DNA of 61,282 nt, the filler included. It is 5 parts of 5 records of this genome, joined end to end, with 100 filler letters (N's around TTAATTAATTAA, not from the genome) between each part and the next. Parts side by side here need not be neighbours in the genome. Positions count along the whole stretch, not along the records: positions 44,901 to 61,282 come from SRR31156797_22216; 4 more parts are not named here. One strand, given 5' to 3'. This document shows, piece by piece, positions 44,901 to 61,282 of the stretch. The notes under the pieces are model-generated. The model saw nothing but the letters and a program-made list of their open reading frames with translations, was not told the DNA's origin and made no database searches. Numbering within the stretch: position 1 is the stretch's first letter; each line of letters opens with the position of its first letter. The position numbers and the translations under genes are program-made.

Positions 44901-44970
44901 AAAGCTCTTTAACTCCTCCGCAAAGCTCTTCGTAGCTTCCTAATTTATCTCCAATTACAAGTATCTTCAT
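44901..44970 (-). CDS. fixB: ETF alpha subunit (FixB/YdiR-like), first 23 codons
   Basis: GGAG RBS then MKILVIGDKLGSYEELCGGVKEL, directly downstream of fixA. Confidence 0.6.
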
Positions 44971-44979
44971 GTTCATCTC

Positions 44980-45741
44980 CTAACCCAGTACTGATTTTAT
45001 TTTTTCGTAAAATTCTGCTACCTTATCGTCGCCTTCAACAATAACATTCATACGGTCTGCCTGTTTCGGAGCCAATACACTCACAACTTCAACAGTAGAC
45101 TCAGGAGCCTCTATTTCAACATCAGTAAATGAGAACTCAGTCACTTTCTTCTTACCGGCAGCAAGTATCTCTTTCATCCCAGGCAGGCGGGGAATATTGA
45201 TATCTGATGTTACACAGATAACAGCAGGGAGAGGAACTTCCAGAACCTCTACCAAATCGTCAAGCGAACGCTCAACAACAACCTTATCACCGTTTGGAGT
45301 TACCTTGCTCACAGAGTTAACAACAGGGACATCCAGTATTTCGCCAACCTGCACCCCTGTTTGCTGTGCATAGAAATCCGCAGAACCTTCACCACATATG
45401 ATAAGGTCAAAACCTATCTTTTGTGCTGCAGCAGCGATGGACTTTGCTGTCTGATTTGTGTCTGAATTTTTGAGTGAATCATCTTTGACAAGATAGAGTT
45501 CCTCTGGACCTCTAGAGAGAATACCTTTTCTTAGTTTGCTGTTTTCCAGCACAGCATCACCTACGGAAAGTGCTTTTATAGAACCGCCTGTTGCGTCTGC
45601 AATAAGAACTCCTTCCTCTACGGCATTCAGGTCATAAAGACTGAGTTTAAGCTCTGCACGGTCAAACGAAAGATTACCGTCAGGAGCAACAACAATATCC
45701 TGCTCTTCATAAACAACTTTATAACAAACTAATACGTTCAT
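44980..45741 (-). CDS. fixA: ETF beta subunit, FixA/YdiQ type
   Basis: VCYKVVYEEQDIVV, DLNAVEE, LSRGP, GEGSADFYAQQTG and INIPRLP motifs. Confidence 0.92.
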   Translation of the reverse strand: MNVLVCYKVVYEEQDIVVAPDGNLSFDRAELKLSLYDLNAVEEGVLIADATGGSIKALSVGDAVLENSKLRKGILSRGPEELYLVKDDSLKNSDTNQTAKSIAAAAQKIGFDLIICGEGSADFYAQQTGVQVGEILDVPVVNSVSKVTPNGDKVVVERSLDDLVEVLEVPLPAVICVTSDINIPRLPGMKEILAAGKKKVTEFSFTDVEIEAPESTVEVVSVLAPKQADRMNVIVEGDDKVAEFYEKIKSVLG

Positions 45742-45751
45742 ATTTATCTCC

Positions 45752-46735
45752 TTAATATATTTTTGATCTTTTTTTACTATAGTAAACAACGCCGTCAGCC
45801 TGCATCTCTTTGCAAAGGATGCCTTTATTTACAAGGTGGGTTAGATGCGACAGTGCTTCCCCAACCGCAAATATCTTGTGAACCATTTGGAAATCCTTCC
45901 ACTCGGTACGCAGCCCCCATGTCATTTGACTAGCTGTCTGAAGTCCGCTCATTTTATTGTTTCCGAGAATGTTCAGGATGTCTTCCATACGTTTATAACA
46001 ATGCTCTTTCAGCTCTAGAATGCGTGCGTAGCAGTTATCTATGGTCTTGCGATGAGCAGGAAATATCTTGTCTACCTGCAGTCCTGAAATCTTATCAAGA
46101 TTTTTAAGATAATCACCGAGTGGGTCGTCCTGTCCTTCCCATGGTGGAGCCCATAGAGTAATATTAGGAGTAATCTCGGAAAGGATATGGTCACCCGAAA
46201 AAAGTACTTTTCTCCTTTCGTCATACAGACAAAAGTGATCAGGAGCATGTCCTGCCGTATCAACACAGGTAAGTTTCCATTTACCAACATTTATAACCTC
46301 TCTATCTTTGACAACATGAGGGTTACAGACACGTTCGGGGATGTGTTTTTCCACACCCATAGACACCTCAGCCATATTTAGACCGCTCTGTGCAAGCACA
46401 TCATAAATGTAGTCCCATGTCTTTATGCCTGCCTCAAACGTCTTTACCGTAAATTCACCGCAATAGACAGTGTTGTCCTCTCTGGACAGACATCCGGAAA
46501 GCCCTGCGTGGTCACTGTGTGCATGTGTGATAAATATATCTGTGGTCCCCATAGAAAAACCAAGAGCTGCCATCGCACTTTGCATCGCCTTCATGCATTC
46601 ATCGGTATTAAATCCCGTATCAATAAGCATATTCCGTTCTTTGCCGCACAAAAGATAAGAATTCAATACGGAAAGCGGATTATCAGGGAGCGGTATTTCT
46701 ATCCTGTATAGGTCCTCATATATTTTCTCAATCAT
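45752..46735 (-). CDS. MBL-fold metallo-hydrolase
   Basis: THAHSDHAG, GHAPDH, FSGDHIL..ITPN and FPAH motifs. Confidence 0.9.
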   Translation of the reverse strand: MIEKIYEDLYRIEIPLPDNPLSVLNSYLLCGKERNMLIDTGFNTDECMKAMQSAMAALGFSMGTTDIFITHAHSDHAGLSGCLSREDNTVYCGEFTVKTFEAGIKTWDYIYDVLAQSGLNMAEVSMGVEKHIPERVCNPHVVKDREVINVGKWKLTCVDTAGHAPDHFCLYDERRKVLFSGDHILSEITPNITLWAPPWEGQDDPLGDYLKNLDKISGLQVDKIFPAHRKTIDNCYARILELKEHCYKRMEDILNILGNNKMSGLQTASQMTWGLRTEWKDFQMVHKIFAVGEALSHLTHLVNKGILCKEMQADGVVYYSKKRSKIY

Positions 46736-46908
46736 AACTATTTGGTTCCCTTAAAGTTTTCAATTTTTATGATTCATAAAGGCACTACAGCTCTTATGCG
46801 GTTTTTTCAATGAGTTTACATAAGTGGATTTATTATATTCGGTTTAAAACATCCTACTTTTATTGTTTTGAGCTGAATTATGCCTTTCTGAAACTTTTAA
46901 TTTATTTA

Positions 46909-48060
46909 TTAATCCATGTATTTTTTAAGTATTGCTCTACCCATGATGTGAACCATAATCTCGTCTGTCCCACCACCTATGCGGAATACTCGTGCGTCTC
47001 TCCAAAGTCTGGACACTCTTGTATCGTTTGTATACCCAATGCCGCCGTGAAGCTGGAGAGCCTGATCGATAACTTCGTTACCCGCCTGGGCACAATAAAG
47101 CTTGCACATTGCTGATGATATCTGTACGGATTTACCCTGATCCATCTCCCCAGCACATCTGTAAACCATGTTTCTCATGTTCTCGATCTTGGTATACATC
47201 TCTGCGATTTTAAGCTGTGTTATCTGTTGTTTTGCGATGGGTTTGCCGAACTGTACACGCTGATTAACGTATGTGGCTGCATCTTTAAATGCACACTCTG
47301 CCATACCTAGGATATATGCAGCCATTATGAGACGTTCGATCTCAAAGTTTTCCATAAGCTGCATGAAGCCATGCCCCTCTTTACCTAGCATATTGGATTC
47401 ATCAAGCTCCACATTTTCAAGGTAAACCTCGCATGTGTGGTTCATCTTCCAGCCGACTTTGTCCAGCTTCTCAAATTTGATATTATCTTTGTTCTTAGCA
47501 ATATCTATCCACCACATAGTAAAAGCTTTAGACATATCTTCGACGTCAAAGTCACGTGTCATACACATCATATACGGGCATCTGTCGCCCTCAGTGATAA
47601 ATGTCTTATTACCGTTGATATATACTTTTCCGTCTTTGCGTGTGAATGTAGCTGCGATTCTGTTTGTATCTGAGCCAGCCTGCGGTTCTGTAATACCAAG
47701 GCTGAAACCGAGGCGTCCCTCTTTTACTACTTCTATAGTCTGAGCTATCTGCTCTTTATTTCCGAAACTGAGGATATCCTTGATCTGAAGAGGAGAGCTT
47801 AGGAGGTTATGCGGAGCACCAAATTTACAAAGGTGTTCAGCTACGAGTATTTGAGTCATATAGTCTACAGGAACTCCGCCATATTCCTCAGGTACACCAA
47901 GGAGTCCAAAGCCGTTATCAATGAGCGATTTGATAAACTCCACAGGTTGTTTTTCTTCTCTGTCACATTCTTTCCAGTAAAGCTCAGGACCTTCATTTTC
48001 AACAAGTTCCTTAAGGCTGTCAAGCAGCAGTTGCTGCTCTTCTGTTAATGTAAAATCCAT
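46909..48060 (-). CDS. Acyl-CoA dehydrogenase/reductase, YdiO/CaiA type
   Basis: MDFTLTEEQQLLL, TEPQAGSD, FTMWWID, KVGW..TCEVY and RIGGGTDEIM; closely resembles E. coli YdiO as recalled. Confidence 0.93.
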   Translation of the reverse strand: MDFTLTEEQQLLLDSLKELVENEGPELYWKECDREEKQPVEFIKSLIDNGFGLLGVPEEYGGVPVDYMTQILVAEHLCKFGAPHNLLSSPLQIKDILSFGNKEQIAQTIEVVKEGRLGFSLGITEPQAGSDTNRIAATFTRKDGKVYINGNKTFITEGDRCPYMMCMTRDFDVEDMSKAFTMWWIDIAKNKDNIKFEKLDKVGWKMNHTCEVYLENVELDESNMLGKEGHGFMQLMENFEIERLIMAAYILGMAECAFKDAATYVNQRVQFGKPIAKQQITQLKIAEMYTKIENMRNMVYRCAGEMDQGKSVQISSAMCKLYCAQAGNEVIDQALQLHGGIGYTNDTRVSRLWRDARVFRIGGGTDEIMVHIMGRAILKKYMD

Positions 48061-48078
48061 ATTATTTCTCCAATGTAG

Positions 48079-48843
48079 TTATTTTTTTTTATTCAAAAAC
48101 GCTTCGACCAAATCTTTATGCTCTTGTGTCTGGCTACAAAAAGGTGTACTGAGAGTTTCAACATCCAGAATACTGCCAAGATCTTTGTGATATGTTGAGT
48201 TTGCTATGCGCTTAGTTATCGCTAATGACATAGATGGAACAGATGATATCTGTTTTGCAAATGTTAATGTCTCTTTGTCTAGGTAGTTATCCGCCACTAC
48301 TTTATTTACAAACCCCATATGAAGAGCTTCTTCGCCCGATACGATGCGGCCTGTGTACCAGAGCTCTTTCGCCCTCTGCATACCTATTAGCTGAGGCATG
48401 AACATCAACGCACCCATCTCTGGAACAATCCCTACTTTCAGGAAGTTACAGCTAAACTTAGTGCTCTCTCCCGCATAAATTATGTCACATGCAAGAGCGA
48501 GGCTCATCCCTCCGCCTACAGCATAGCCTTTGACTGATGCGATAACAGGTTTCTCCATATTCTGGATTGCCATAACTGTCTTGCCGTATTTACGCAGGGA
48601 ATGATGAGAACTCTCAATAGTATGCCCGCCAGGAGCAGCCTTCAGGTCTCCTCCTGAACAGAAATGGTCGCCTTCACCACCCAGAATAACAACTCTGACA
48701 TCTGGGTCTGCTTCAAGACTGTTGAAACAGTCAGTCATAATGTCCATCATGTCAGGATCTATAGCATTTCTACGCTCCGGCTTATTCAGCATCACGTAGC
48801 CGATGTCACTTTCTTTCTTTGTATATACTGTCGCCATTCTCAT
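48079..48843 (-). CDS. Crotonase-family protein (PaaG-like isomerase/hydratase)
   Basis: FCSGGDL, AVGGGMSLALACD and FLKVGIVPEMG motifs; ATGA overlap with the upstream gene. Confidence 0.9.
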   Translation of the reverse strand: MRMATVYTKKESDIGYVMLNKPERRNAIDPDMMDIMTDCFNSLEADPDVRVVILGGEGDHFCSGGDLKAAPGGHTIESSHHSLRKYGKTVMAIQNMEKPVIASVKGYAVGGGMSLALACDIIYAGESTKFSCNFLKVGIVPEMGALMFMPQLIGMQRAKELWYTGRIVSGEEALHMGFVNKVVADNYLDKETLTFAKQISSVPSMSLAITKRIANSTYHKDLGSILDVETLSTPFCSQTQEHKDLVEAFLNKKK

Positions 48844-50894
48844 ATCCCCTTTGCTGCTATGTAGCCAGCTTTTGTAGCATCAGCCATACGCTGCGGATTT
48901 ATACAGTCACCAACAGCTTCCACATATTCAGCTTTGTTTTTACAATTTATATAAAGAGACGCGTTCTCTTCGAAGCCGAGTGTTACAGCTACAGTGTCTG
49001 CCTCATACATGAAAAGAGACCCGTCCTCTCTCTGAGCCTTTACACCTAAGGAATTGATCTCTAAAACTTTTGATTTTGGCTCCATCTGAACTACAGGAGA
49101 CTTCTTGAATGCGGATGTGATATGGAAACGTTCGCTTCCGCCAACGTCGTAGCCTATCTTCTTGTTTTCTTCTATCATCGCCATTTCACGATTATTATGC
49201 AGAAGCTCGATACCCAGCTCACAACCTGGTAGACCTCCGCCAATGATAGCAACACGCTTGCCGAACGGCCAAGGTGACCACATCATTTTTTTAATAAGGC
49301 TTGGACTGTAAAACAGACTTAAGAAGATACCAGCACTGTTCCACATAATCTTGTTGATAATCCCCGGTTTGCTAGGCGGAGTTCCATTAAGAAGAGACAG
49401 AAAGTCGTGTGAACGTACAACATTACCTCTGTCGATCCCCGGAACATAAAGATCTCTAGGTTCTCCGCCAATAGCAACGATTACAGCATCCGGCTTAACT
49501 TTGCTTATGAGTTCAGGAGTTACCTGAGTTTTGAGATTCACTTTTATTTCAGGAGTATTAGCAAGCCTGTGCTTGTAATATTTTGTCATTCTTTCGTAAA
49601 GCGGGCTGAATATTGCACTCATGACAAGACATCCACCCACTCTTGGACCTTTTTCGTAGATTGTGACATCGTGCCCACGCTCATGAGCAGTAAATGCAGC
49701 AGATAGTCCACCAGGACCAGAGCCTATGATCATCACCTTCTGACGATGTGAAGAAACGCCTGTCTCCTCTTCCAGTTCATAACCAAGGCGTGAGTTCACA
49801 CTGCAAAAGTTCAGCGGTTTCCCTCTACTAACAACATCATCCAGACATCGACAACAGCAGATACATTTCTTTATCTCCTGCTCTCTACCATGCTCTGCCT
49901 TAACACCGAACTCCGGGTCTGCAATGCTGTATCTAAGTCCTGCTATGATATCTGTGTGACCTTCCGCAATGATTCTCTCCATATTTTCAGGATCAGTATT
50001 GCGGTAACCAACAGCTACAGGAGCTTTAACAACTTGCTTTATCTCTTTACCCATCCATGAGAAACCGCCTTCCGGCACAGATTTGATAGTCACCGGAACG
50101 GCACTCTCATGCCAGCCTATCTGAAGGTTGTGCCAAGCAGCACCTGCGTCATCAAGAATCCTGGCTATCTGGATGGCATCCTCCATCTCATTTCCACCTT
50201 CGATATAGTCAACAGGAGTCCACCTGACAACAACAGGAAAGTCCTCTCCGCAGGCGTCCTTGATAGCTTTTATGCAATCAACGGTAAGTCTGCATCTGTT
50301 CTCCATTGTCTGTGGACCGTATTCATCAGTTCTTTTATTTGTCGCCTTTGACATAAAGCGAGACATAATAGCGCCAACCCCAGCCACTAGCTCTACAGCA
50401 TCCCAACCTGCTGTTTGAACTATTTTTGCTCCTCTGGCAATGTGCTGGATAAAAAGATCAATATCTCCTTTAGTCATTGCCTGTATTGGAACTTTAGCTG
50501 GGGGGAGGCGAACATCGGACGGTCCCCAGTGTCCTACGCTCTCACCTGGCTTCCTGCGCCACTCGTGCACAGTGAAAGCCTGCGCTACTATCTTGCATCC
50601 GTGTTTTTGTACAACTTCAGCCATCTGCTTCATATGAGGTATGTGACTTTCGTCAAAAGCCTCTGGTAGCAAATGGCCTTCAGGATCCATAGGGTAGAAA
50701 GAAATGGTCTGGCATATAGCGCCGAGACCGCCTTTTGCTCTCTCTTCGAGATAATTTAAAAAACGTTGGGTCGGTTTCATACCTTTATCGGTGTAACCTT
50801 CACCCGGTGACATTGACGTACTCATCAACCTGTTCTTCATACGCATCGATCCGACTTTTATCGGTGAAAACAAATTCTTATATTTTGTGGACAT
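48840..50894 (-). CDS. FadH/OYE-like FMN-FAD-4Fe4S oxidoreductase with an atypical active site
   Basis: LFSPIKVG..KNR, NKRTDEYG, IGWHE, CICCCRC-x11-C, IIGSGPGG and VGDC motifs. Confidence 0.9.
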   Translation of the reverse strand: MSTKYKNLFSPIKVGSMRMKNRLMSTSMSPGEGYTDKGMKPTQRFLNYLEERAKGGLGAICQTISFYPMDPEGHLLPEAFDESHIPHMKQMAEVVQKHGCKIVAQAFTVHEWRRKPGESVGHWGPSDVRLPPAKVPIQAMTKGDIDLFIQHIARGAKIVQTAGWDAVELVAGVGAIMSRFMSKATNKRTDEYGPQTMENRCRLTVDCIKAIKDACGEDFPVVVRWTPVDYIEGGNEMEDAIQIARILDDAGAAWHNLQIGWHESAVPVTIKSVPEGGFSWMGKEIKQVVKAPVAVGYRNTDPENMERIIAEGHTDIIAGLRYSIADPEFGVKAEHGREQEIKKCICCCRCLDDVVSRGKPLNFCSVNSRLGYELEEETGVSSHRQKVMIIGSGPGGLSAAFTAHERGHDVTIYEKGPRVGGCLVMSAIFSPLYERMTKYYKHRLANTPEIKVNLKTQVTPELISKVKPDAVIVAIGGEPRDLYVPGIDRGNVVRSHDFLSLLNGTPPSKPGIINKIMWNSAGIFLSLFYSPSLIKKMMWSPWPFGKRVAIIGGGLPGCELGIELLHNNREMAMIEENKKIGYDVGGSERFHITSAFKKSPVVQMEPKSKVLEINSLGVKAQREDGSLFMYEADTVAVTLGFEENASLYINCKNKAEYVEAVGDCINPQRMADATKAGYIAAKGI

Positions 50895-50920
50895 ATGCAT
50901 CTCCTTACTTGCTTTATAAA

Positions 50921-50937
50921 AGCAAGGGGAATGCCAG
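50921..50937 (-). promoter_or_regulatory. sigma54 -24/-12 promoter
   Basis: Minus strand CTGGCATTCCCCTTGCT = consensus GG-N10-GC. Confidence 0.85.
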
Positions 50938-50950
50938 AAGGGTACATACG

Positions 50951-50980
50951 CAAAAAAACCTGTAAATACAGGTTTTTTTG
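50951..50980 (-). terminator. Terminator of the EBP gene
   Basis: Perfect palindrome CAAAAAAACCTGTA-AA-TACAGGTTTTTTTG. Confidence 0.65.
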
Positions 50981-51010
50981 TTATTATATTAATTTGAAAT
51001 GATCAATTAA

Positions 51011-51036
51011 ATGGAACACAGTGTTCCATGTGTTCA
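51011..51036. promoter_or_regulatory. Putative EBP enhancer
   Basis: ATGGAACAC-A-GTGTTCCAT palindrome plus TGTTCA, about 75-100 bp upstream of the sigma54 promoter. Confidence 0.65.
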
Positions 51037-52959
51037 GTTGACGTGTTTTACCACAGATGTCTGAATGTGGATGTTATATTTGTCTATCTTACGATAAAGG
51101 GTATTGCGAGCCATACCAAGCTCCTTAGCTGTTTGAGCTATGTTGCCTTTATGCTTCTCAAGACACCTTCTGATATTGTCTAGCTTATCACTCTTCTCTA
51201 TAAGATTATGGCTATGTATATCACTCTCATGTATCATTCCATATTTCGCAAGTATATCAGCGGTAATAACACTATCCAGAGAGAGAATCATTATCTTTTC
51301 TATATAGTTACGCAATTCTCTTATATTTCCCGGCCACATATGACTAAGCAGAACATCTTTGGCACTTCTGGCCAAAGTTTTCACCGGTATATTAAGCTGG
51401 GTGGAGAGTTCTTTTATGAAATGCTCAGCAAGGTATATAACATCCTCCCCACGCTCATTAAGAGGAGGAAGCTCCAGTTCAATAACTGCAAGCCTGTAGA
51501 AAAGATCCTCCCGGAAGAGACCTTGGTTTACGAGATCACGAATATTCTTATTAGTAGCCGCTATTATACGAACATCAACGTTTTTAGTAACATTAGAATT
51601 GATCTTAGTTATTACACGTTCCTGAATAAAACGAAGCAAGCTAACCTGCATATCAAGCGGCATCTCACTGATCTCATCAAGAAGCAGAGTTCCGTTATTA
51701 GCATATTCAAACTTTCCCATTGCTCCTTCGGCTCTAGCACCAGTAAAAGCTCCTCTTTCGTAACCGAAAAATTCACTACAAAGGAGTTCTTTGGGAATAT
51801 TACCGCAATTTACAGCTACGAAATTCCCTTTACGCCCACTGAGTTTATGGATAGCTTTCGAGACAACCTCTTTACCAGTACCTGTTTCACCGAAGACCAT
51901 TACACTAGATGAAAAGCCTGCTACACGGTTTACAATTTCGTCAACACGCCCCCATGCTTCGCTCTCTCCAATATACAGGTCACTGCGTCTGTATTTGTTC
52001 AGACGAATGACAGGTTCCTCTTCCCTCTGCTCGAATACAAACATGACAAGAGATTCACCGCCTATTGTCATGCAGCTTTTTCTAAGCAGGCGCATCGTTT
52101 TAGTATTTTGAAATTTATAGGTGGACTCAGCGTTTGCAACACAACAATCCTCCATGATACGCTTTGCATCTTTCTTGTTGCTAAGTATATCTACAATATT
52201 TACCCCGTTGTAGATCATATCTATGGATTCTTTTGCATTCTTATTAGCATATTTAAGATATCCTTCATCAGACACTATCATCACAACGTCATCAGAAATA
52301 TTTATGAGGTCTGTTACCCCTACACCTAGTTCTGTCTGCATACTGGCAGAACACTTCACCTGCTGGCAGAGGTCAGGAGACAATAACTGTTCGATAAGAA
52401 ATGCACTCTTAATAAGCATCTCCAAAGTAATTTCCGGCAGAGGTCCGAATATACTTACACCGTTTATAACACCGATCAGTTCGCCTTTATTTAAAATAGG
52501 TGCGCTGGCATCTGAGCAGCCATGAGAAACAGCTCTGTAGTGCTCAAAACCGTCAACCCTGATAGCTATATTCTCTCTGACGGCTATAGTTATTGCTCCA
52601 TTACCGTGTGTGGATTCTCTGACAAATGAGCCAAGTGAACGCGGATAGTTGTCAAGAGGTGATATGAGTTTAAATACAAACCCATCTTTATCGCATATAG
52701 AAATGTTAATATTCAATGCTGTAAAAAGTATCTGCATTACAGGATAAGCAACATTCAGAAGAAATTTATTCTGTTCTGTTCGTTCTTTTAATTCTTGCAT
52801 CGACCCCATAGGGTAAGACCCAGACCATGGGTCAAGTCCAGCCTCACTGCACCTGAGCCAAGCTCTGCTTATCTCCGGCCTGATCTTATCAGCCAGGATC
52901 GTTCCGTCTGTTACAAATGCCTTCCAAGCAACAATAATATCATCTTGAGCTTCATACAT
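51034..52959 (-). CDS. AcoR-like GAF-domain sigma54 enhancer-binding protein
   Basis: IRPEISRAWLRC..GLDP GAF start; GETGTGKE, GAFTGA, WPGNIREL and Fis-HTH LGMARNTLYRKI. Confidence 0.94.
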   Translation of the reverse strand: MYEAQDDIIVAWKAFVTDGTILADKIRPEISRAWLRCSEAGLDPWSGSYPMGSMQELKERTEQNKFLLNVAYPVMQILFTALNINISICDKDGFVFKLISPLDNYPRSLGSFVRESTHGNGAITIAVRENIAIRVDGFEHYRAVSHGCSDASAPILNKGELIGVINGVSIFGPLPEITLEMLIKSAFLIEQLLSPDLCQQVKCSASMQTELGVGVTDLINISDDVVMIVSDEGYLKYANKNAKESIDMIYNGVNIVDILSNKKDAKRIMEDCCVANAESTYKFQNTKTMRLLRKSCMTIGGESLVMFVFEQREEEPVIRLNKYRRSDLYIGESEAWGRVDEIVNRVAGFSSSVMVFGETGTGKEVVSKAIHKLSGRKGNFVAVNCGNIPKELLCSEFFGYERGAFTGARAEGAMGKFEYANNGTLLLDEISEMPLDMQVSLLRFIQERVITKINSNVTKNVDVRIIAATNKNIRDLVNQGLFREDLFYRLAVIELELPPLNERGEDVIYLAEHFIKELSTQLNIPVKTLARSAKDVLLSHMWPGNIRELRNYIEKIMILSLDSVITADILAKYGMIHESDIHSHNLIEKSDKLDNIRRCLEKHKGNIAQTAKELGMARNTLYRKIDKYNIHIQTSVVKHVN

Positions 52960-53305
52960 TGATCCACTCCTCTATATTTTTAAAAGCAAATTAAGCTGAT
53001 TATGTAATTATAATAAGACTCCTATAGTTGATTTAGTATTTTTAAACTAATGACATAATCAAGTTCCAGTTTTGAGTTGTATATAAAAGTATCTAAAATT
53101 AAGTCAAGTGTGGTGTAGAAGGAGAAGTTGGGCATCGTGGTATTTGATAAGATCAGACTAGTTTCCCAATAAACTACTGCTACCATCAACAACCACCCCA
53201 GAAAACACATATTGATGAAAACTTATAATTCTTAACTTATTATATACTAATTTCGAATACCTGACAGGCAATATTGTCAAATATCTATCAACTTATTGTT
53301 ATACG

Positions 53306-54073: not shown

Positions 54074-55630
54074 TTAATCCTCCAATATGCAATTAAACTC
54101 GTATTTTTCTATTAATTTCTGCTTATTAATCTTGCCCGCAGAATCTGCAATATGGTCATGAGTGACACAAAAGTATTTCGGCTTTTTATAGCTCGCCATA
54201 TTACATTTGCAGTATTTGATCAGTTCATCACATGTAATACTTTCATCTTTATAAAGGCGTATGACGGCAGCGATAGCCTCACCCCATCTCTCGTCAGGCA
54301 CCCCGACAACTGCGCATTCTGCTATGGCAGGATTTGCCATCAACACGGACTCAACGTCACGGCAGTAAACATTTTCTCCGCCAGTCTTTATCATGTCTTT
54401 CTTTCTGCCGACCATGTAGTAGTAACCATCTTGTTTATAAAACATGTCACCCGTATGAAGCCATCCACCAACCAATGCCTCTTCTGTAAGAAGCGATTGG
54501 TCGTAATACCCACTCATAACTGTCGGTCCACGGACAATAATCTCTCCAACCTCTCCTTCCGGTAACTCGCAGCCATTATCATCAACAATCTTAAGCTCTA
54601 TAAGCCCAGCAGGAGTTCCCACACTGCTGAACACCTTATTTGATGTATCCATGTCACGAGTCAGGATGAGTTTTGTACCAACACCAGACTCAGTTTGTGC
54701 CCAGCCGTAATGCATCTCTGCATTTGGAAATGCTTTGAAAATTGCGTCTGCAATCTCTTTCGATGTTCCACCTGCTGATGTCTGGATAACCTTTATGGAT
54801 GACACATCATAGTCTTTTATGCACTCGTCCTTAGTTAATCTCTGATAGCTTGCTGGAGGCAAAAGAAGAAGGTATGTCACTCTCTCTTTCTCTATAGCTT
54901 CGAGTATCTGTTTTGCATTAAATCTATCCTGCATGACGTAAGTGCAGCCTGCTGCTATGGCACACATTACCCAAGTGTACCCCCCATGATGATTCATAGG
55001 ACTCTGCGCCATCACAACTTCGTCAGGCACTGTTCCGATCTTTGTCTGTGTGAGAAGGGAGAGCATGGTAAGATAATCCTGCTCCTGAGTATGAACAACA
55101 CCTTTAGGGATACCAGTGGTACCTCCGGTAAACTGGATTCGGCACATATCATCATTCCCAACCACAACCTCGGGCTCTGATTCTGCACCTGCAAGAATAA
55201 ACTGTTCGTATGAAAGCTCAACGTCGGAAGGGGTCTCTGTAAGGCATATGCAGTGTTTGAGAACACCTATAGGGCCGAAACCACACTCAACAGCGATATC
55301 TCTGTACTTCTCACAATAAAAGAAGATTGAGCAATCGGCGGATTCAAGTAAATATCTTATCTCTGAATAAACCAACCTGTGATTTAGCGGAACAGCAACA
55401 GCCCCCGCCTTTTGGATAGCAAAATAGATTTCAACAAGTTCAAAACAGTTAGGGAGTAAATAAGCTACCCTGTCGCCTTTATTTACCCCAAGCTCAATAA
55501 GACTATTAGCCAGTTTTACGGCTCTCTTGTTAAGCTCAGAAAAGCTGATACGTTTCTCACAGTGAACAAGGGCAGTCTTTTCTGGAGATATATTGGCACT
55601 GTTAATAAGGAAATAGCCCATATTAAACAT
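54074..55630 (-). CDS. Acyl-CoA synthetase (AMP-forming)
   Basis: FTGGTTGIPKG, YGWAQTE, HTGD and KTGGENVY motifs. Confidence 0.93.
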   Translation of the reverse strand: MFNMGYFLINSANISPEKTALVHCEKRISFSELNKRAVKLANSLIELGVNKGDRVAYLLPNCFELVEIYFAIQKAGAVAVPLNHRLVYSEIRYLLESADCSIFFYCEKYRDIAVECGFGPIGVLKHCICLTETPSDVELSYEQFILAGAESEPEVVVGNDDMCRIQFTGGTTGIPKGVVHTQEQDYLTMLSLLTQTKIGTVPDEVVMAQSPMNHHGGYTWVMCAIAAGCTYVMQDRFNAKQILEAIEKERVTYLLLLPPASYQRLTKDECIKDYDVSSIKVIQTSAGGTSKEIADAIFKAFPNAEMHYGWAQTESGVGTKLILTRDMDTSNKVFSSVGTPAGLIELKIVDDNGCELPEGEVGEIIVRGPTVMSGYYDQSLLTEEALVGGWLHTGDMFYKQDGYYYMVGRKKDMIKTGGENVYCRDVESVLMANPAIAECAVVGVPDERWGEAIAAVIRLYKDESITCDELIKYCKCNMASYKKPKYFCVTHDHIADSAGKINKQKLIEKYEFNCILED

Positions 55631-55759: not shown

Positions 55760-57004
55760 TTAGTATGTTTTTTTGCTTGTGGCTGTACCCAGAAGGAGCA
55801 GTACTAGCGCAGCAGTAAACATTGCCGTTACAAGCGGCCAGTGGATTGCAAATGATTTATCAACATCGTAAAGCTTTCCATAAAGCATAGGAGCAACAGT
55901 ACCACCGAATATACCGAGTCCGAATGCAATGATAGAAAATACTTGTGAGTAGCTTTTCATTCCGAATCTAGTACGGATAAGAAGAGGCGGTACAATTGTA
56001 AGAGCAGCGTAAGCCACACCAAACATAAATGTACCTATAAAAAAGAGCGTCACGTTAAGATTTGCTATTATAGCAATAGCGCTTCCTGCCATACCTACAA
56101 GCATTGCGACAACACCTGTTTTAACTATACCAATTCTGTCATTCAGCCAGCCGAGAAATACCTTACCTGTGATACCTCCGATCATGATAACAGATACGGC
56201 TGTAGCACCAATCTGAGAACCGAGACCTTTCCAAACAGCATAACCAGGTGTTTGGATGTGCATAGATGCACATGTAACGATAAGGCAAGCCATCAGGAAG
56301 AAGCACCAGAAAGAGAAAGATGTCATAGCTTCTTTAAAAGTTGCACCTGTAGCTTCTCCAGTAGGAGTTTTCTCTTCTTTCACGCTGTCTGCACCGTATG
56401 CCTTAAGACCTTTCTGTTCAGGAAATCTGCGAATCACAAATACCATGAAAGGCATAACGCCTACGAACACTACAAGACCAAAGATTAGCCTTGTCATTCT
56501 CCAGCCGTACTCAGTAATAAGCCAGTTACCTACAGGATTAGCGAAAACAGCAGTAATACTGGAGAATGCAACGGCTATACCAAGAGCAAGTCCAATGTTC
56601 TTCTTGAACCAACTATTGATAAGGATTGGGATTGGTAGGTAGAACAGGAAGGCGTTACAAACACCTATGATCACACCAAATACGTTCCACGCCATCAGGG
56701 AATGGAACTGAGAGGAAAGCGCATATGAACCGCAAAGTACGGCAACAACGATTCCCAATATTAATCGAATATCTATTTTAGAAAATAACCTACCTGCAAC
56801 AGGCTGAAAAAGCGCTGTCAGCAAACCGCTTATAGACATGTAGTAAGAAGCCTGAACACGAGTCCATTCCATCTCCTGCATAACAGGGTTCAGGAAAATA
56901 CCCATTGTATTACCTATAACACCAACTGCACCACCGTACATTGCACAGCATGCCACCAAAACCCACCAAGCGTAGTGGATACCTTCGTTTTTTGAATTAT
57001 TCAT
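55760..57004 (-). CDS. MFS transporter (paralogue 2)
   Basis: About 12 TM helices; WFKKNIGLALG and GWLNDRIG motifs. Confidence 0.92.
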   Translation of the reverse strand: MNNSKNEGIHYAWWVLVACCAMYGGAVGVIGNTMGIFLNPVMQEMEWTRVQASYYMSISGLLTALFQPVAGRLFSKIDIRLILGIVVAVLCGSYALSSQFHSLMAWNVFGVIIGVCNAFLFYLPIPILINSWFKKNIGLALGIAVAFSSITAVFANPVGNWLITEYGWRMTRLIFGLVVFVGVMPFMVFVIRRFPEQKGLKAYGADSVKEEKTPTGEATGATFKEAMTSFSFWCFFLMACLIVTCASMHIQTPGYAVWKGLGSQIGATAVSVIMIGGITGKVFLGWLNDRIGIVKTGVVAMLVGMAGSAIAIIANLNVTLFFIGTFMFGVAYAALTIVPPLLIRTRFGMKSYSQVFSIIAFGLGIFGGTVAPMLYGKLYDVDKSFAIHWPLVTAMFTAALVLLLLGTATSKKTY

Positions 57005-57018
57005 AATAAATAACCTCT

Positions 57019-58284
57019 TTATTTAGTTAAACTTACAGTTCTTTCTGTCCACTTTAATCCTTTATTCAGATTAAAAATCAAAACTGCTAAAACAAATGAG
57101 CCGATGTTGCAACCGAGCACTAATCCCCATGCTCCTCTATAGCTGTCAGTAAGATCGTATACTCCGCCGTATATAAGAGGCGCTATAGCACCAAAAAGAC
57201 CTAGAGCTATTGTTACTGACGAGTATATTTTTTCGTAATCCAACGAACCGTAAACTGCTCGCACTACAAGAGGAGGAACTATTGTCAGAGCCGCATAGCT
57301 AAAGCCAAACATAAAAGTTCCGGTAAAGAAAAAGGGAATATTTGTATTACCTGCCAACACTACAGCGGCACCTATTGCGCCTATGAGCATTGCCAGAAAT
57401 GTAGTGTTGCGGACACCAATTCTGTCCACCAGCCAGCCAAGCACAAATTTACCCACGACTCCGCCAACCATAATTACGGAAACAGCGGTAGCCCCTACGG
57501 TAGAAGACATTCCTATGGAACGTGCGTAGCTTGGGGTCATGACGTGCATGCTGGCGGTAAACACTATCAGACCGGCTAGTAGAAACACCATATAAAACAC
57601 AGGGTTCTTAAGTGCGTCCTTATATGTGACACCTTTCTCTGTGACAAGACCGGAATCGATCTCATCATTTCCTTCATAACCGTATGGTTTCAATCCCATA
57701 TCTTCGGGTCTGTACCTGACCAAAAATATACAGAAAGGCATAGCAAGTAACCAAGCACTTGACCCTATAACTATTCTTGCAAAACGCCAGCCGTATTCAT
57801 CTATAAACCAACCGCCCAGCGGGTTCACTATTGCTGCCGTAATGCTTGCGAAAGCAACACTTATGCCTAATGCCAGCCCTGCACGCTTATCAAACCAGTT
57901 GTTTATAAGCAAAGGCCCAGGGAGATAAAGTATAAAAGCATAAGCGACACCGAGGATGACACCTATCATGTACCACTGCCATAAATGATTCGTGAATGCA
58001 CTATATACATATCCACCGGACATGAGGGTTATGCCTACAGACAGTATTATACGGATATCTACTTTTGTATAAATACGCCCAGCAACAGGTAGCAGAATGG
58101 TCATCACAGTCAGCAGTATAGTGATATAAAAGTTCAAGCTGGCACTTTTCCAGCCCATCTCTTTAGTCACTTCTAAAAGAAACAGCCCTGCACTGTTAGC
58201 TATCATTCCAATACCGGCACCATAAAGGGCACACACACAAAACAAGATATACCATGCGTAATGCATTTTCTTAACCTTACTCAT
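57019..58284 (-). CDS. MFS transporter (paralogue 1)
   Basis: About 12 TM helices; WFDKRAGLALG and GWLVDRIG motifs. Confidence 0.92.
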   Translation of the reverse strand: MSKVKKMHYAWYILFCVCALYGAGIGMIANSAGLFLLEVTKEMGWKSASLNFYITILLTVMTILLPVAGRIYTKVDIRIILSVGITLMSGGYVYSAFTNHLWQWYMIGVILGVAYAFILYLPGPLLINNWFDKRAGLALGISVAFASITAAIVNPLGGWFIDEYGWRFARIVIGSSAWLLAMPFCIFLVRYRPEDMGLKPYGYEGNDEIDSGLVTEKGVTYKDALKNPVFYMVFLLAGLIVFTASMHVMTPSYARSIGMSSTVGATAVSVIMVGGVVGKFVLGWLVDRIGVRNTTFLAMLIGAIGAAVVLAGNTNIPFFFTGTFMFGFSYAALTIVPPLVVRAVYGSLDYEKIYSSVTIALGLFGAIAPLIYGGVYDLTDSYRGAWGLVLGCNIGSFVLAVLIFNLNKGLKWTERTVSLTK

Positions 58285-58352
58285 ATCGGTCCACCTATAT
58301 CGTCATTCCTGCGGGTTAAGGTCTGACGGCCGAACCCTCGACCGCCATATAT

Positions 58353-59564
58353 TTATTTCTTGATTAACCCTTTGTTATAGAACTCCTGAATATCCTCTTC
58401 GTTAAAGCCAAGTTCAGCGAATACATCTTCGTTGTCCTGACCGTATGTCGGACCTCCACGAAAAACCTGACTTGGATTATTCTTAAACTTTGGAACAGGA
58501 GCAGGACCTTTAATCTGTTTCTCAGTACTTGGATCATCCCACTCTATAAAGACCTCACGAGCCTTATAGTGCGGATTTTCTATCATCATTTTATATGTCA
58601 TGATCGGGCTTGACGGGATCTGCAGTTTAGAGAAAATCTCGTCAAGTTCTTCCGGTGTATGCTCCAGACAGAAAGCCTTAATAGCTTTATTAAATTTAGC
58701 GGCTCTCTCAGGGAATGATCTAGCTATGATCGAGTGGGGTTCTGCAAAGTCAGGATCTCCTTCGAGGTCTAGAAGTTTCTCAAGCTTCTTCAGAGGACCT
58801 GCACCACCAACAGCGATGTAATACCAGCGTCCGTCCTTACATTTTTCTGTACCATCTGTGGCACCGATAATGTCTTTATTGCCCATACGCTGGAACTCTG
58901 TGCCTTTATTAAGGCTGTCCATAAGATAATTACCCTGCATGCGAACAAGAGTTTCGAACTGCGCAACGTCAATGCTCTCGCCTTTGCCTGTCTCTTTTGC
59001 TCTGTAATAGGCTGCAAGCGTACCAAAGGCAGCAAAAAGTGCTGTTGTATAGTCGCAGAGGAAAGGTTTCGGAGCATACGGAGGCGCAGGATCAGGTTCA
59101 CCATTAATAGACATGTAGCCACTGAATGCCTGACCGACTACATCAAAAGATGCTCTTGGGATATACTCAGGTGCACCTGTCTGCCCAAAACCTGAAATAT
59201 GTGTAATAACAAGCTTAGGGTTCATCTCCCAGAGAACCTCATCAGAAAGTCCCCACTTCTTCCATGTACCACCCTTTGAGGACTCGATAATAATATCAGC
59301 CCATTTAACGAGCTTCTCCAGTATCGGTCTGGACTCTATATTAGGGACATCGAGAGTAATACCTCTCTGGTTTTTGTGAAAATCAGACCATGTATCTCCA
59401 AAATTGCGAAGCATATCAGGAGACTTAACACTTTCTATCTGAATAACATCGGCTCCCTGTTCGGAAAACATCCCTGCTGAGAAAGGTCCTGCTATAGCGC
59501 TGCTTGCGCTAAGCACCTTTAAGCCCTGAAGGTTCCCAAATTCAGGCATTTCACTTTTTTTCAT
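58353..59564 (-). CDS. Family III (CaiB/BaiF) CoA transferase
   Basis: MPEFGNLQGLKV..IAGP, ISGFGQTG and catalytic Asp in LCDY; AAGGAG RBS. Confidence 0.93.
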   Translation of the reverse strand: MKKSEMPEFGNLQGLKVLSASSAIAGPFSAGMFSEQGADVIQIESVKSPDMLRNFGDTWSDFHKNQRGITLDVPNIESRPILEKLVKWADIIIESSKGGTWKKWGLSDEVLWEMNPKLVITHISGFGQTGAPEYIPRASFDVVGQAFSGYMSINGEPDPAPPYAPKPFLCDYTTALFAAFGTLAAYYRAKETGKGESIDVAQFETLVRMQGNYLMDSLNKGTEFQRMGNKDIIGATDGTEKCKDGRWYYIAVGGAGPLKKLEKLLDLEGDPDFAEPHSIIARSFPERAAKFNKAIKAFCLEHTPEELDEIFSKLQIPSSPIMTYKMMIENPHYKAREVFIEWDDPSTEKQIKGPAPVPKFKNNPSQVFRGGPTYGQDNEDVFAELGFNEEDIQEFYNKGLIKK

Positions 59565-59664
59565 AACAATCTCCTTATTTTCAATACTTAAGCAAAAGTC
59601 ATAAACGGCAGCCCTTCCCTCCGCAACATGTGGAGTACAGAGAGAAGGTGCCTGCAATTGTTAC

Positions 59665-60984
59665 TTAGAAAGCAGCAAATACACGGAACCATGTAACGCT
59701 TACGGGGTCTGCGTCATAAGTTACATATTTACCGTTAGCGTCCTGGTTTCCTGTTGAAACGCTATCGATCATAGCTACAGAGTAACCACCGCTAAGTGTT
59801 ATGATTTTTGAAAGTTTGTAAGAAATTGTCAGGTCAGCCTCGAGAGCTGTTGTGTCCTTTGTCCATGTTTTGATAGCGTTAAAAGGTCTACCATACGCAA
59901 TCGCTACATCATCATCAGTTATGTTACTTCTGTAGTAAGCTACCGAAGGTTTAAAAGTGAGTTTTTTACCAGCTGGAGCTTCAGCGTAAACACGGAATGA
60001 TGTAGAAGCAGGAACACCTCTGTTATCCCCCATGATATCATCCATAATTCTCATTCTGTCGAGGTCTCCACCAACAGAGAAGAAACCGTCTTCTTTGTCA
60101 TAGCTGGAATACTCAGCCTCAAGACCAAACTTAGCAAAGTCAGCTTGATATGTAACATCAGCGTAAGCACCATATGCTTTCACATCTTCGCTGTTGAGCT
60201 TCATGTAGACGCCTTGATTATCATAAGCTTTACCACCAACGTAAGCTGTTGAAAATGTTGAGGAAAGTTTATCCGTGATATCGAACTCAGCACTAAGATA
60301 TGTACCGTAGATACTTGACTTGTCGTCATTAGTTACATCAGCGCCGTATGTAGAATAATAAGAACCGTAAGCGTGAAGGTTAAGACCTTCGAGAGTTATA
60401 TCTGTACCTGCGATGAGAGCATCAGAGTCTCTGTTATGATCTACATCGTAGAACATGTCATCATCATCTGTCTCAAATGTTTTTTCATATTGAGCCCAAA
60501 GCTTGATAGGGCCTTTTACATATTCAGCTCTTGCACCACTTCTTGCACCAAACTCAGTAAATCCACCGTTATACCAGCCCTGCGCCCACCCTTTGACGGA
60601 GTAGTTAGCTGCAGTCATAAAGCCAACATGAAGAGTAAGATCTTCTGTCGCTCTGTATCTAAGCCATGCACGACCAAGAATAGCTGTACCTTTGATGACA
60701 CCGCCACTGTTGTGCTGATATGCGTTACCCCATCTGTGGTTGATAGGTGTTGTACGCATAATGATTGTTGTGTCGTCATCCATATCAAGATAAGCCCAGA
60801 TACGAAGCTGTTGTTTGATATAACTAGCATCTTTTGTTGATACTGTTCCTCCATCCCCTACTGTGCTGTTTCCGATGAAACGGAACTCAGTATCATCGTA
60901 ACCAGTCAGAGTGAGTTTGTAGGCAAATGCCATATTTGTCACACAGGCCAGAATTACAATTATTCCTAACAGTTTTCTAATCAT
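59665..60984 (-). CDS. Outer-membrane porin-like beta-barrel protein
   Basis: Signal peptide (MAFA), alternating aromatic beta pattern, C-terminal Phe. Confidence 0.72.
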   Translation of the reverse strand: MIRKLLGIIVILACVTNMAFAYKLTLTGYDDTEFRFIGNSTVGDGGTVSTKDASYIKQQLRIWAYLDMDDDTTIIMRTTPINHRWGNAYQHNSGGVIKGTAILGRAWLRYRATEDLTLHVGFMTAANYSVKGWAQGWYNGGFTEFGARSGARAEYVKGPIKLWAQYEKTFETDDDDMFYDVDHNRDSDALIAGTDITLEGLNLHAYGSYYSTYGADVTNDDKSSIYGTYLSAEFDITDKLSSTFSTAYVGGKAYDNQGVYMKLNSEDVKAYGAYADVTYQADFAKFGLEAEYSSYDKEDGFFSVGGDLDRMRIMDDIMGDNRGVPASTSFRVYAEAPAGKKLTFKPSVAYYRSNITDDDVAIAYGRPFNAIKTWTKDTTALEADLTISYKLSKIITLSGGYSVAMIDSVSTGNQDANGKYVTYDADPVSVTWFRVFAAF

Positions 60985-61017
60985 TATAACCTCCGAAAAT
61001 TAGAATGAACTGTAAGG

Positions 61018-61033
61018 AGCAACGGTAATGCCA
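61018..61033 (-). promoter_or_regulatory. sigma54 -24/-12 promoter
   Basis: Minus strand TGGCATTACCGTTGCT = consensus GG-N10-GC, 33 bp upstream of the porin ATG. Confidence 0.85.
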
Positions 61034-61154
61034 TACTTCTCCACAAAAACTTACAAATACTTACAAAGATATAAAGCACTATTAATAAAAATGATTTTAA
61101 ATGGTCTCTCCTCATGAGAGCAAGAAATGTTCAATTTAAGTTTTACAGATTGAT

Positions 61155-61189
61155 TAAACACAATGTTCAGATTGAACAGAGTTGAACAC
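61155..61189. promoter_or_regulatory. Putative EBP enhancer
   Basis: AAACAC-A-ATGTTC, TGTTCA-GAT-TGAACA and TGAACAC: the same half-sites as at 51011-51036. Confidence 0.6.
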
Positions 61190-61282
61190 TCTAAAAATAC
61201 TAATTCCCTCTTATTGAATCGCAACTGAATAGTCCTAAGATAGTTGTAGTGAATAACTCAGAAGTCTCTACAAAACTAGGGG

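Follow-up and report, generated by a model that had tools for sequence, protein, structure and literature searches.

A conserved gene cluster with sigma-54 promoters that may serve CoA-recycling, flavoprotein-linked reduction of an unsaturated acid

What chemistry is carried out by a gene cluster that combines a YdiO-type acyl-CoA dehydrogenase (ACAD) and its electron-transfer flavoprotein (ETF) with a CoA ligase and a CaiB-like CoA transferase, and that adds a FadH-like reductase, a crotonase-fold protein and a member of the TIGR03084 family? The question is raised by positions 44901–61282 (record SRR31156797_22216) of the DNA analyzed here, a stretch of 61,282 nucleotides that is referred to below as the window. 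The window consists of five contig pieces, with GC contents from 0.31 to 0.52, which are joined by N44-TTAATTAATTAA-N44 linkers at 13425–13524, 23324–23423, 28771–28870 and 44801–44900, and the cluster occupies the last piece only. The window is therefore no continuous piece of a genome: genes separated by a linker are not neighbors, and the contig that carries the cluster is unrelated to the sequence before 44801. The answer that we favor, with roughly even confidence, is a CoA-recycling saturation of a conjugated unsaturated acid, driven by quinol/ETF and by NAD(P)H, that leaves the carbon skeleton intact.

Calling of open reading frames (ORFs) and searches of Pfam and NCBIfam found twelve long ORFs on the minus strand of 44901–61282, all of them cluster genes. 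Their arrangement is the one given in an earlier note made from the letters of the window, with all genes on the minus strand in two units around an activator gene. Unit 1 encodes, in order, a porin-like protein, a CaiB-like CoA transferase, two carriers of the major facilitator superfamily (MFS), an acyl-CoA ligase and the TIGR03084 protein, and is followed by the gene for a sigma-54 activator. Unit 2 encodes the FadH-like enzyme, the crotonase-fold protein, the YdiO-type ACAD, a hydrolase of the metallo-beta-lactamase (MBL) fold, ETF-beta and a stub of ETF-alpha.

Related loci were collected by scanning species-representative genomes with the TIGR03084 protein, which gave 59 loci (numbered with the prefix L); genes were counted by identity thresholds and at least 50% coverage, and the counts are lower bounds because many loci are cut by contig ends. 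The closest loci come from two Deferribacterales metagenome-assembled genomes (MAGs), in which the twelve genes have identical order and 64–96% protein identity, as expected from the Deferribacterota-like origin proposed earlier. The TIGR03084 gene was found in 2 of 68 Deferribacterota genomes and in none of 14 control genomes, and the cluster is thus patchy within the phylum. Its carriers belong to the Deferribacterota, Actinomycetota and Bacillota, are gut and sediment anaerobes, and include Eggerthellaceae, Oscillospiraceae, Hungatella, Desulfitobacterium, Cellulomonas and Deferribacterales, among others. Across these three phyla, the genes for the FadH-like enzyme, crotonase, ligase and ACAD are found beside the TIGR03084 gene in 40 of the 59 loci, and in 28 of the 32 that have flanks of 7.5 kb or more at both ends (the exceptions are L005, which has no ligase, L013, L029 and L049). 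The core loci are collinear in 34 of 40 cases, in the order FadH-like, crotonase, ligase, ACAD and TIGR03084. Counted singly, the ACAD is present in 55 of the 59 loci, the ligase in 49, the FadH-like enzyme and the crotonase in 46 each, MFS carriers in 38, the CoA transferase in 35, the activator in 25, FixC in 22, ETF-alpha in 18, the MBL hydrolase in 17, ETF-beta in 15 and the porin-like protein in two, both Deferribacterales. This conservation indicates that the gene set is under joint selection. Chance co-location of the genes was also considered and is ruled out by the synteny counts (40/59 for the core, 34/40 for collinearity).

The electron-transfer proteins of the cluster resemble those of the E. 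coli ydi locus. The ACAD (46909–48060) passes the YdiO equivalog model NF008997 with 595.3 bits (cut-off 537) and misses the CaiA model NF002885 with 405.7 bits (cut-off 540). Its catalytic layout is that of YdiO and CaiA, with a glutamate base in the helix-G "ER" motif and a glycine at the position of the catalytic glutamate of MCAD/Bcd, and is consistent with a working dehydrogenase or reductase; CaiA is annotated as a reductase in the E. coli K-12 record. In a quick tree with CaiA as outgroup, YdiO was sister to, and outside, a clade of all 54 cluster ACADs (97% support in the Shimodaira-Hasegawa-like approximate likelihood ratio test), a placement that is provisional given that YdiO and CaiA are long branches, and the phyla were interleaved inside the clade. 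The ACADs of L040 and L041, from bins labeled Subdoligranulum and Bacteroidaceae, were near-identical to that of Slackia isoflavoniconvertens, with branches of 0.004–0.007, which suggests either a binning error or a very recent transfer.

ETF-beta (44980–45741, with the ATG at 45741 as its likely start) passes the YdiQ equivalog model NF008998 (355.2 bits against 338) and the FixA subfamily model (285 against 219), while the bifurcating-type models EtfB ("flavo_sub_EftB", 107.6 bits against 445) and AcrB (86.3 against 475) were both missed. The fixA-fixB end that the earlier note assigned to unit 2 thus holds for fixA, and fixB is present only as a stub, namely the first 23 codons of a YdiR/FixB-type ETF-alpha (44902–44970) that is cut by the contig end. 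The stub is 83% identical to the start of the 302-residue ETF-alpha of L001, and the rest of ETF-alpha, FixC and FixX were not found anywhere else in the window and lie beyond the contig end. The description of the regulon as self-contained in the earlier note therefore depends on what relatives show beyond that point. In the relative L001/L064 (G001:C3), unit 2 continues with ETF-alpha (302 residues), FixC (446 residues) and FixX (91 residues). FixC of this relative is 54% identical to YdiS and has the quinone-binding domain of ETF-quinone oxidoreductase (ETF-QO), and its FixX is 54% identical to E. coli FixX and 48% to YdiT. The ETF-alpha of L001 is 41% identical to YdiR and scores 244.7 bits on the YdiR equivalog model (cut-off 528), and its FixC, scored as a partial sequence, has 306 bits on the YdiS model (cut-off 466). 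Downstream of FixX in the Deferribacterales locus L064 (4016–6505) is a gene for an 829-residue, Asn/Ile-rich protein with a hydrophobic C-terminus and no Pfam match. The Hungatella locus L007 (10882–14154 and 19743–20675) has a second, shorter FixC-like gene and an extra ETF pair that scored best on acryloyl-CoA-reductase (bifurcating-type) models; it also encodes a MenA-like prenyltransferase that is below its cut-off, which we counted, together with the rpoN of that locus, in favor of CoA-recycling reduction.

The FadH-like protein (48840–50900, 686 residues; PF00724, 176.9 bits; PF07992, 75 bits) is predicted to be an NAD(P)H:flavin Fe-S oxidoreductase. It has an old yellow enzyme (OYE) domain, a cysteine cluster and an FAD/NAD domain, and aligns over residues 7–667 to E. 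coli FadH (1ps9, 227 bits). It thus shares with FadH the three-domain architecture over its full length, the cysteine cluster, His252 and a crotonase-fold partner, the last as in the pairing of FadH with 3,2-enoyl-CoA isomerase. It differs from FadH in that E164 and Y166 are replaced, in its higher score to 2-naphthoyl-CoA reductase (6qkg, 259.8 bits), its best solved relative, and in its location in a dedicated operon with an ETF-linked ACAD and CoA recycling rather than in a fad regulon. No NCBIfam cut-off was reached, with 325.2 bits on the BaiCD model NF041087 (cut-off 825), and the nearest public homologues have generic names only, such as "NADH:flavin oxidoreductase" of Desulfitobacterium hafniense DCB-2. 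The motif C-x2-C-x2-C...C is present in the window protein and in the six orthologues printed. Among the 46 aligned family members, the position of FadH E164 is Val in 44 and Ser in two, that of Y166 is Gly in 41, Ala in three (including the window protein) and Tyr in two, and that of H252 is His in all 46. We take Glu164, Tyr166 and His252 to have active-site roles in FadH, and FadH mutants reportedly tie Tyr166 to the 2-enoyl and His252 to the 3-enoyl product. With these replacements, a 3-enoyl product is plausible for the FadH-like enzyme of the cluster.

In the crotonase-fold protein (48079–48843; ECH_1, 196.5 bits), both positions of the hydratase glutamates are non-acidic, as they are in the ten orthologues printed, and the consensus over 47 family rows has no conserved Glu at either position, while E. 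coli CaiD keeps both. The motifs GGGFEL and LPEA of CaiD are replaced by GG(G/A)xxL and (N/A)F(L/C)K, respectively, and a PEMG motif reaches at least 90% conservation in the alignment of these 47 rows. In dienoyl-CoA isomerase, an acidic residue nearby is catalytic. Judged by these residues the protein cannot act as a normal hydratase, and we propose that it is an enoyl/dienoyl-CoA isomerase.

The TIGR03084 protein (53306–54073), a predicted metal-binding protein of the DinB/MDMPI fold that we propose to be an isomerase, scores 289.7 bits, above the curated cut-off of 247.95. H45, E134 and H138 do not vary among 32 orthologues, for which the mean column identity is 72%. A search of the PDB by sequence gave no match at E 0.01, and its structural relatives come from a fold search with a predicted model (predicted local distance difference test score, pLDDT, 92.8). 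The top match was the mycothiol-dependent maleylpyruvate isomerase (2nsf/2nsg; E 4e-6, TM score 0.58–0.62, 16% identity), which spans both domains over 251 columns; DinB/YfiT proteins ranked next, and the C-terminal part is similar to SCP2 as well. The two proteins thus have a two-domain DinB-type fold in common, and the His/Glu/His metal triad is invariant in TIGR03084, whereas identity is only 16%, the substrate is presumably a CoA ester, and the carriers of TIGR03084 include Bacillota and Deferribacterota, which are not known to make mycothiol. Among 1.84 billion representatives at 50% identity, the cluster-linked TIGR03084 proteins collapse into a single full-length entry (462.9 bits), the full-length representative that follows scores 205.7 bits, and there are 183 matches at E values up to 1e-30; by these scores the cluster-linked proteins are a tight subgroup. 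In the Eggerthellaceae MAG locus L043 (10001–10759), the TIGR03084 stretch contains an in-frame stop, which may reflect a broken copy or a sequencing error.

Activation of the substrate would involve two enzymes. The ATP-dependent acyl-CoA ligase (54074–55630; AMP-binding, 265 bits) reached no NCBIfam cut-off: its best score was 412 bits on PRK06187 (cut-off 476), and it scored 243.8 bits on the CaiC model NF005947 (cut-off 651) and 240 bits on a medium-chain ligase model (cut-off 736). Its nearest solved relatives are the feruloyl-CoA/fatty-acyl-CoA synthetases 8wev and 8weu (245 bits). The CoA transferase (58353–59564; PF02515, 306.7 bits) is of family III (CaiB/BaiF type); its ORF is open from a TTG at 59657, and the ATG at 59564 is the likely start. 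It scores 350.2 bits on the CaiB equivalog model NF002914, below the cut-off of 413, and its best solved relative is CaiB (1xk6) with 273.7 bits, followed by the next at 130. Several related loci have two family III CoA transferases in tandem.

Uptake would depend on a channel and two carriers. The first gene of unit 1 (59665–60984) encodes an outer-membrane channel-like protein of 439 residues with a signal-peptide-like N-terminus and a C-terminal phenylalanine (...WFRVFAAF). It has no Pfam or NCBIfam match; its language-model (atlas) features have similarities of 0.97–0.98 to clusters of the Alginate_exp/Porin_4 type, and a low-confidence AlphaFold2 model (pLDDT 54.3, from 3 sequences only) is all-beta with about 18 long strands. 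The MFS carriers (57019–58284, PF07690, of the oxalate/formate-antiporter (OFA) or monocarboxylate-transporter (MCT) type, and 55760–57004, its paralogue with an MFS_1 match and 46% identity) have modest scores on specific models: the first has 139.6 bits on SfMCT (cut-off 320) and 72.9 bits on the OFA family, and the two carriers have 111.1 and 106.2 bits on the bile-salt MFS model NF038246 (cut-off 400). Both carriers are MFS_1 proteins, and none of the 12 window proteins matched the betaine/choline/carnitine transporter (BCCT) family in Pfam. In L010 (11139–12605) and 10 further Oscillospiraceae/Clostridiales loci, most of them without an MFS gene on that strand, a conserved protein of 488–491 residues with no Pfam match is encoded between TIGR03084 and two tandem CoA transferases, and it may be an alternative transporter. 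The MBL-fold hydrolase of unit 2 (45752–46735; Lactamase_B, 77.6 bits), an accessory thioesterase or lactonase candidate, has among its solved relatives an uncharacterized Thermus protein (2zo4) and a paraoxonase and, weakly, the thioesterase PqsE.

The sigma-54 control inferred in the earlier note has visible counterparts in the DNA: each unit is preceded by a full-consensus −24/−12 element (TGGCAT-N5-TTGCT), and the activator has the GAFTGA motif. The element of unit 1 (TGGCATTACCGTTGCT; TGGCATTACCGTTGC(T); 61019–61033, minus strand) is 34 nt before the porin start, and that of unit 2 (TGGCATTCCCCTTGCT; TGGCATTCCCCTTGC(T); 50922–50936, minus strand) is 21 nt before the FadH-like start. Both are kept in L001 and L002, where the unit 1 element again precedes the porin gene. 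Over the whole window the loose pattern TGGC-N8-TGC shows no enrichment (11 occurrences, with 7.9 expected), and the promoter argument therefore rests on position and full consensus. The activator (51034–52959) is an AAA+ enhancer-binding protein with Sigma54_activat (205 bits), AAA_lid_14 and HTH_8 matches. Together, promoters and activator mark the cluster as a predicted sigma-54-dependent operon by its sequence signals. The activator gene itself has a sigma-70-like promoter candidate (53239–53267, minus strand; CTGTCA-17-TATAAT, which agrees with the consensus at 10 of 12 positions) and is followed by a hairpin terminator (50950–50981) with a 14-pair stem and a T run.

Repeats of TGTTCA/TGAACA, including palindromes of the 6-3-6 form, are found 85–170 nt upstream of the two promoters and are candidate binding sites of the activator. 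The candidate site of unit 1 (61164–61189, minus strand) consists of the palindrome TGTTCA-ATC-TGAACA (61164–61178) and further TGTTCA hexamers, with an additional TGAACA at 61128; the 249 nt that precede unit 1 hold four such hexamers, compared to 0.83 per kb window-wide. The candidate site of unit 2 (51013–51035, minus strand), directly after the activator stop codon, has a TGAACA followed by the palindrome GGAACA-CTG-TGTTCC. Both the palindrome of unit 1 and the site of unit 2 are conserved in L001. The N-terminal sensor region of the activator (residues 1–320) belongs to no named family, and it is 30–70% identical to open frames at the activator position in 26 related loci from three phyla, in alignments that mostly span 160–320 of the 320 residues. 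Such conservation across phyla suggests a shared effector. In 21 loci, as judged by ORF clustering with one representative checked in Pfam, rpoN adjoins the activator gene, and the module seems to travel with its own sigma factor. In Eggerthellaceae and Hungatella, rpoN is directly before the activator gene, as in L059 (12405–13865), L007 (14438–15859) and 19 further loci, which make up the 21.

A second sigma-54 activator (PAS, AAA+), with which residues 1–320 of the cluster activator gave no alignment, is encoded in another contig piece of the window. It heads a run of genes on the plus strand (30744–44303) that encode a saccharopine-dehydrogenase-like protein, a Liv-type ABC transporter (binding protein, two permeases and two ATPases), an Fe-alcohol dehydrogenase, an aldehyde dehydrogenase and a solute-binding protein, and this run may be another sigma-54 catabolic unit. 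Methyl-accepting chemotaxis genes are found in or beside the cluster in Desulfitobacterium (L005, 10914–12065) and Actinotalea (L047, 17622–19217; the protein has an sCache_2 domain), and the substrate of the cluster may also be a chemoattractant.

The pathway that we favor can be described as a cai-type "enoate respiration" with extra steps, switched by sigma-54 and the activator, a description for which belief and doubt are nearly balanced. An unsaturated monocarboxylic acid would cross the outer membrane via the channel-like protein and the inner membrane via an OFA/MCT-type MFS carrier, with the second carrier probably serving product export or exchange. The ligase would use ATP to form the first acyl-CoA, after which, by analogy with CaiC/CaiB, the CaiB-like transferase would move CoA from product to incoming substrate. 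The TIGR03084 protein would set the geometry or position of a double bond, the FadH-like Fe-S flavoenzyme, the active-site residues of which are described above, would reduce the conjugated system with NAD(P)H, and the crotonase-fold protein would shift the remaining bond to the 2-position. The YdiO-type ACAD would then reduce the 2-enoyl-CoA with electrons that pass from menaquinol via FixC/FixX and ETF-alpha/beta. In this scheme an isomerase would link two reductions. The MBL hydrolase may act as an accessory thioesterase or lactonase, and the activator would sense the acid or its CoA ester and fire both promoters. Four observations argue for skeleton-preserving chemistry on CoA esters: a priming ligase is combined with a CaiB-like transferase, which fits CoA recycling; no thiolase or 3-hydroxyacyl-CoA dehydrogenase was found among the 12 window genes or the conserved neighbor families sampled; the crotonase is, by its residues, a non-hydrating one; and a dienoyl-type reductase is encoded beside a CaiA/YdiO-type ACAD that connects to FixABCX.

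The general plan has a precedent in caffeate respiration by Acetobacterium woodii, in which CarABCDE comprise a CoA transferase, a priming ligase, an ACAD-type enoyl-CoA reductase and an ETF, and the skeleton is kept. The window cluster differs from the Car system in its FixA/YdiQ-type ETF followed by a quinone oxidoreductase, in place of a bifurcating ETF, and in the additional FadH-like, crotonase and TIGR03084 proteins; CarC (6fah, 170.6 bits) is not the nearest solved relative of its ACAD (4rm7, 195 bits). Protein-by-protein comparison with the E. coli K-12 ydi locus showed 53% identity between the ACAD and YdiO and 49% between ETF-beta and YdiQ, both above the model cut-offs. The ydi locus, however, has a family I transferase (YdiF) instead of one of family III, and no FadH-like, crotonase or TIGR03084 genes; in turn, the ligase of the window is only 29% identical to FadK, its MFS carriers have no match to YdiM or YdiN at E 1e-5, and it has no AraC regulator. 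We would file the cluster under CoA-recycling, ETF-linked enoate reduction of the cai/car type.

Several points weigh against this reading. The ACAD, ETF and ETF-quinone oxidoreductase form a classical oxidative chain, and both the substrate and the direction of the pathway are inferred. FixC, FixX and most of ETF-alpha are outside the window and are seen in relatives only. The product predicted for the FadH-like enzyme leans on mutant data for E. coli FadH, and the isomerase roles of the crotonase and TIGR03084 proteins are argued from residues and fold, in the latter case at 16% identity. The MBL gene is absent from 42 of the 59 loci. As for regulation, a −24/−12-like motif within 300 nt upstream of a cluster gene was found in 28 of the 59 loci, a count made without a shuffle control. 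The motif is missing from nine loci of Cellulomonas, Propionibacteriaceae and Actinomycetales, and in the five of these nine with at least 7.5 kb on both flanks the activator was also not found, which shows that sigma-54 regulation is not universal.

The direction of the chain is at the center of the first alternative, a tentative one that we consider somewhat unlikely: oxidative catabolism of an unsaturated or branched/cyclic acid under anaerobic respiration. Here the YdiO-type ACAD would oxidize an acyl-CoA, and ETF and FixCX would carry the electrons on to menaquinone. The FadH-like protein and the crotonase-fold isomerase would help with awkward double bonds, as such enzymes do in beta-oxidation of polyunsaturated acids, and housekeeping enzymes would finish the degradation, a scheme in detail as tentative as the alternative itself. 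Deferribacterales and Desulfitobacterium are respirers, and E. coli YdiO was proposed as an anaerobic substitute for FadE. ACAD, ETF and ETF-QO are moreover the textbook oxidative chain, to which the quinone-binding domain of FixC conforms, and FadH and 3,2-isomerase are a known auxiliary pair of beta-oxidation (PMC12691678). What this alternative leaves unexplained is the gene content: neither the window cluster nor the conserved neighbors sampled include a 3-hydroxyacyl-CoA dehydrogenase or a thiolase, the crotonase does not have the hydratase residues that a turn of beta-oxidation needs, and the CaiB-like transferase (35 of 59 loci, often as a pair of genes) is easier to reconcile with CoA recycling from product to substrate than with complete degradation. 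Many of the carriers, moreover, live in the gut as fermenters.

Hydroaromatic acids are the substrates in a second alternative, in which shikimate, quinate or a cyclohexene/cyclohexadiene carboxylate, bound to CoA, would be converted to cyclohexanecarboxylate by reduction and dehydration; we consider it quite unlikely. The route to cyclohexanecarboxyl-CoA (CHC-CoA) in Streptomyces (AnsJKLM/PlmJK-L-M, ChcA, ChcB) has, by description, a ligase, an ACAD-like protein, an OYE reductase and a crotonase-family isomerase, the last being ChcB, and the title of Skyrud et al. (2020) names a shikimoyl-CoA synthetase and an FAD-dependent dehydratase. ETF/FixCX, a CoA transferase or a TIGR03084 protein are not known from that route. 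A table of PMC5852498 lists, for the formation of CHC-CoA from shikimate, an AMP-ligase, a "short-chain-CoA dehydrogenase", an "NADH:FMN oxidoreductase" and ChcA. Also in favor are the relationship of the FadH-like enzyme to the ring-reducing 2-naphthoyl-CoA reductase, the gene order of E. coli, in which ydiN, ydiB (quinate/shikimate dehydrogenase) and aroD are immediately followed by ydiO and ydiQRST, the sister position of YdiO to the cluster ACADs, and the plant-fed anaerobic habitats of the carriers, as judged by record titles. On the other hand, neither shikimate/quinate dehydrogenase (AroE/YdiB) nor dehydroquinase (AroD) was found among the conserved neighbor families sampled, and the Streptomyces route, which was compared by description, is biosynthetic, uses the short-chain dehydrogenase/reductase (SDR) ChcA and gives no reason for ETF/FixCX. 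Furthermore, a preprint (10.1101/2022.12.26.521950) ascribes shikimate reduction by Eggerthella lenta to a flavin reductase that does not depend on CoA.

Could the cluster be a non-proteobacterial equivalent of cai/fix that reduces crotonobetaine or a related betaine? In favor of this, a priming ATP ligase (30% identity to CaiC), a recycling family III transferase (39% to CaiB), a crotonase fold (35% to CaiD), a CaiA/YdiO-type ACAD (42% to CaiA) and a FixAB-FixCX chain (48% between ETF-beta and FixA) all have counterparts in E. coli, and CaiB is the nearest solved or curated relative of the transferase (273.7 bits, against 130 for the next; 350 bits in NCBIfam). We nevertheless regard this explanation as very improbable. 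All four Cai cut-offs are missed, among them the CaiA, CaiB and CaiC equivalog models, the ACAD resembles YdiO (53%) more than CaiA, and the crotonase does not have the glutamates that CaiD needs for dehydration of carnitinyl-CoA. The window has MFS carriers and a sigma-54 activator where cai has the BCCT antiporter CaiT and CaiF, and it adds MBL and porin genes together with the conserved FadH-like and TIGR03084 genes, which have no role in carnitine reduction. Oxidation or reduction of a CoA-linked bile or steroid acid ring by the FadH-like enzyme is hardly credible, for although ligase, family III transferase, FadH-like flavoenzyme and MFS carriers are bai families (BaiCD, 325 bits; bile-salt MFS, 106–111 bits) and many carriers are gut bacteria, the two scores are far below the cut-offs of 825 and 400, no BaiA-type SDR was found and a SnoaL-like protein occurs in 6 loci only, the ACAD and ETF have no place in the bai pathway, and bile acids are not expected in the habitats of Cellulomonas, Actinotalea, Desulfitobacterium or the termite-gut-labeled bins that also carry the cluster.

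The description of the locus in the earlier note as cai- or ydi-like but neither has thus been upheld, in that the YdiO and YdiQ cut-offs are passed and those of CaiA, CaiB, CaiC, FadK and BaiCD are missed, and in that the carriers are MFS and not BCCT, the transferase is of family III and not a family I YdiF, and the regulator is a sigma-54 activator. In terms of sequence, the electron module is YdiO/YdiQRST-like and the remainder is neither cai, ydi nor bai. The note had also called the pathway uncharacterized, and no description of the cluster was found in the main-text literature searched, which covered TIGR03084, Eggerthellaceae enzymes, gut quinate and cyclohexanecarboxylate metabolism and Desulfitobacterium Y51; in a paper on the sigma-54 regulon of Clostridiales (PMC6615313), five enzyme terms that were looked for did not occur. 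The papers found on E. coli ydiO and ydiQRST are reviews or y-ome lists, in which these genes have no shown function.

The CoA-recycling reduction that we favor would unite two known schemes, one being CoA recycling of the cai type with FixABCX and the other dienoyl reduction of the FadH type, and the cluster adds to them two proteins of unexplained chemistry, the TIGR03084 protein and a crotonase without hydratase residues. The cluster is conserved and not a one-off, and some of its carriers are cultured, tractable strains; cultured carriers include Desulfitobacterium hafniense DCB-2 and Y51, Adlercreutzia equolifaciens, Slackia isoflavoniconvertens, Eggerthella sinensis and Bacillus massilioanorexius. 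A bolder extension, unlikely as it stands, is that the core with the CaiB-like transferase and FixABCX represents an undescribed anaerobic respiration of an abundant plant-derived conjugated or hydroaromatic acid. The acceptors might then, just as speculatively, be cyclohexadiene carboxylates derived from shikimate or quinate and reduced to cyclohexanecarboxylate, or a 2,4-dienoic acid; and, with no greater confidence, the module might be passed as one piece from phylum to phylum, along with its activator and, at 21 loci, an rpoN of its own. If this extension were true, it would provide the first physiological context for the E. coli y-ome genes ydiO and ydiQRST, and TIGR03084 would be a new kind of double-bond isomerase, one that acts on CoA esters and needs no thiol cofactor. 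Identification of the substrate of the cluster would provide a testable lead for the function of E. coli YdiO/YdiQRST, add an electron sink or a catabolic route to the metabolism of gut and sediment and give a name to a TIGRFAM "hypothetical equivalog".

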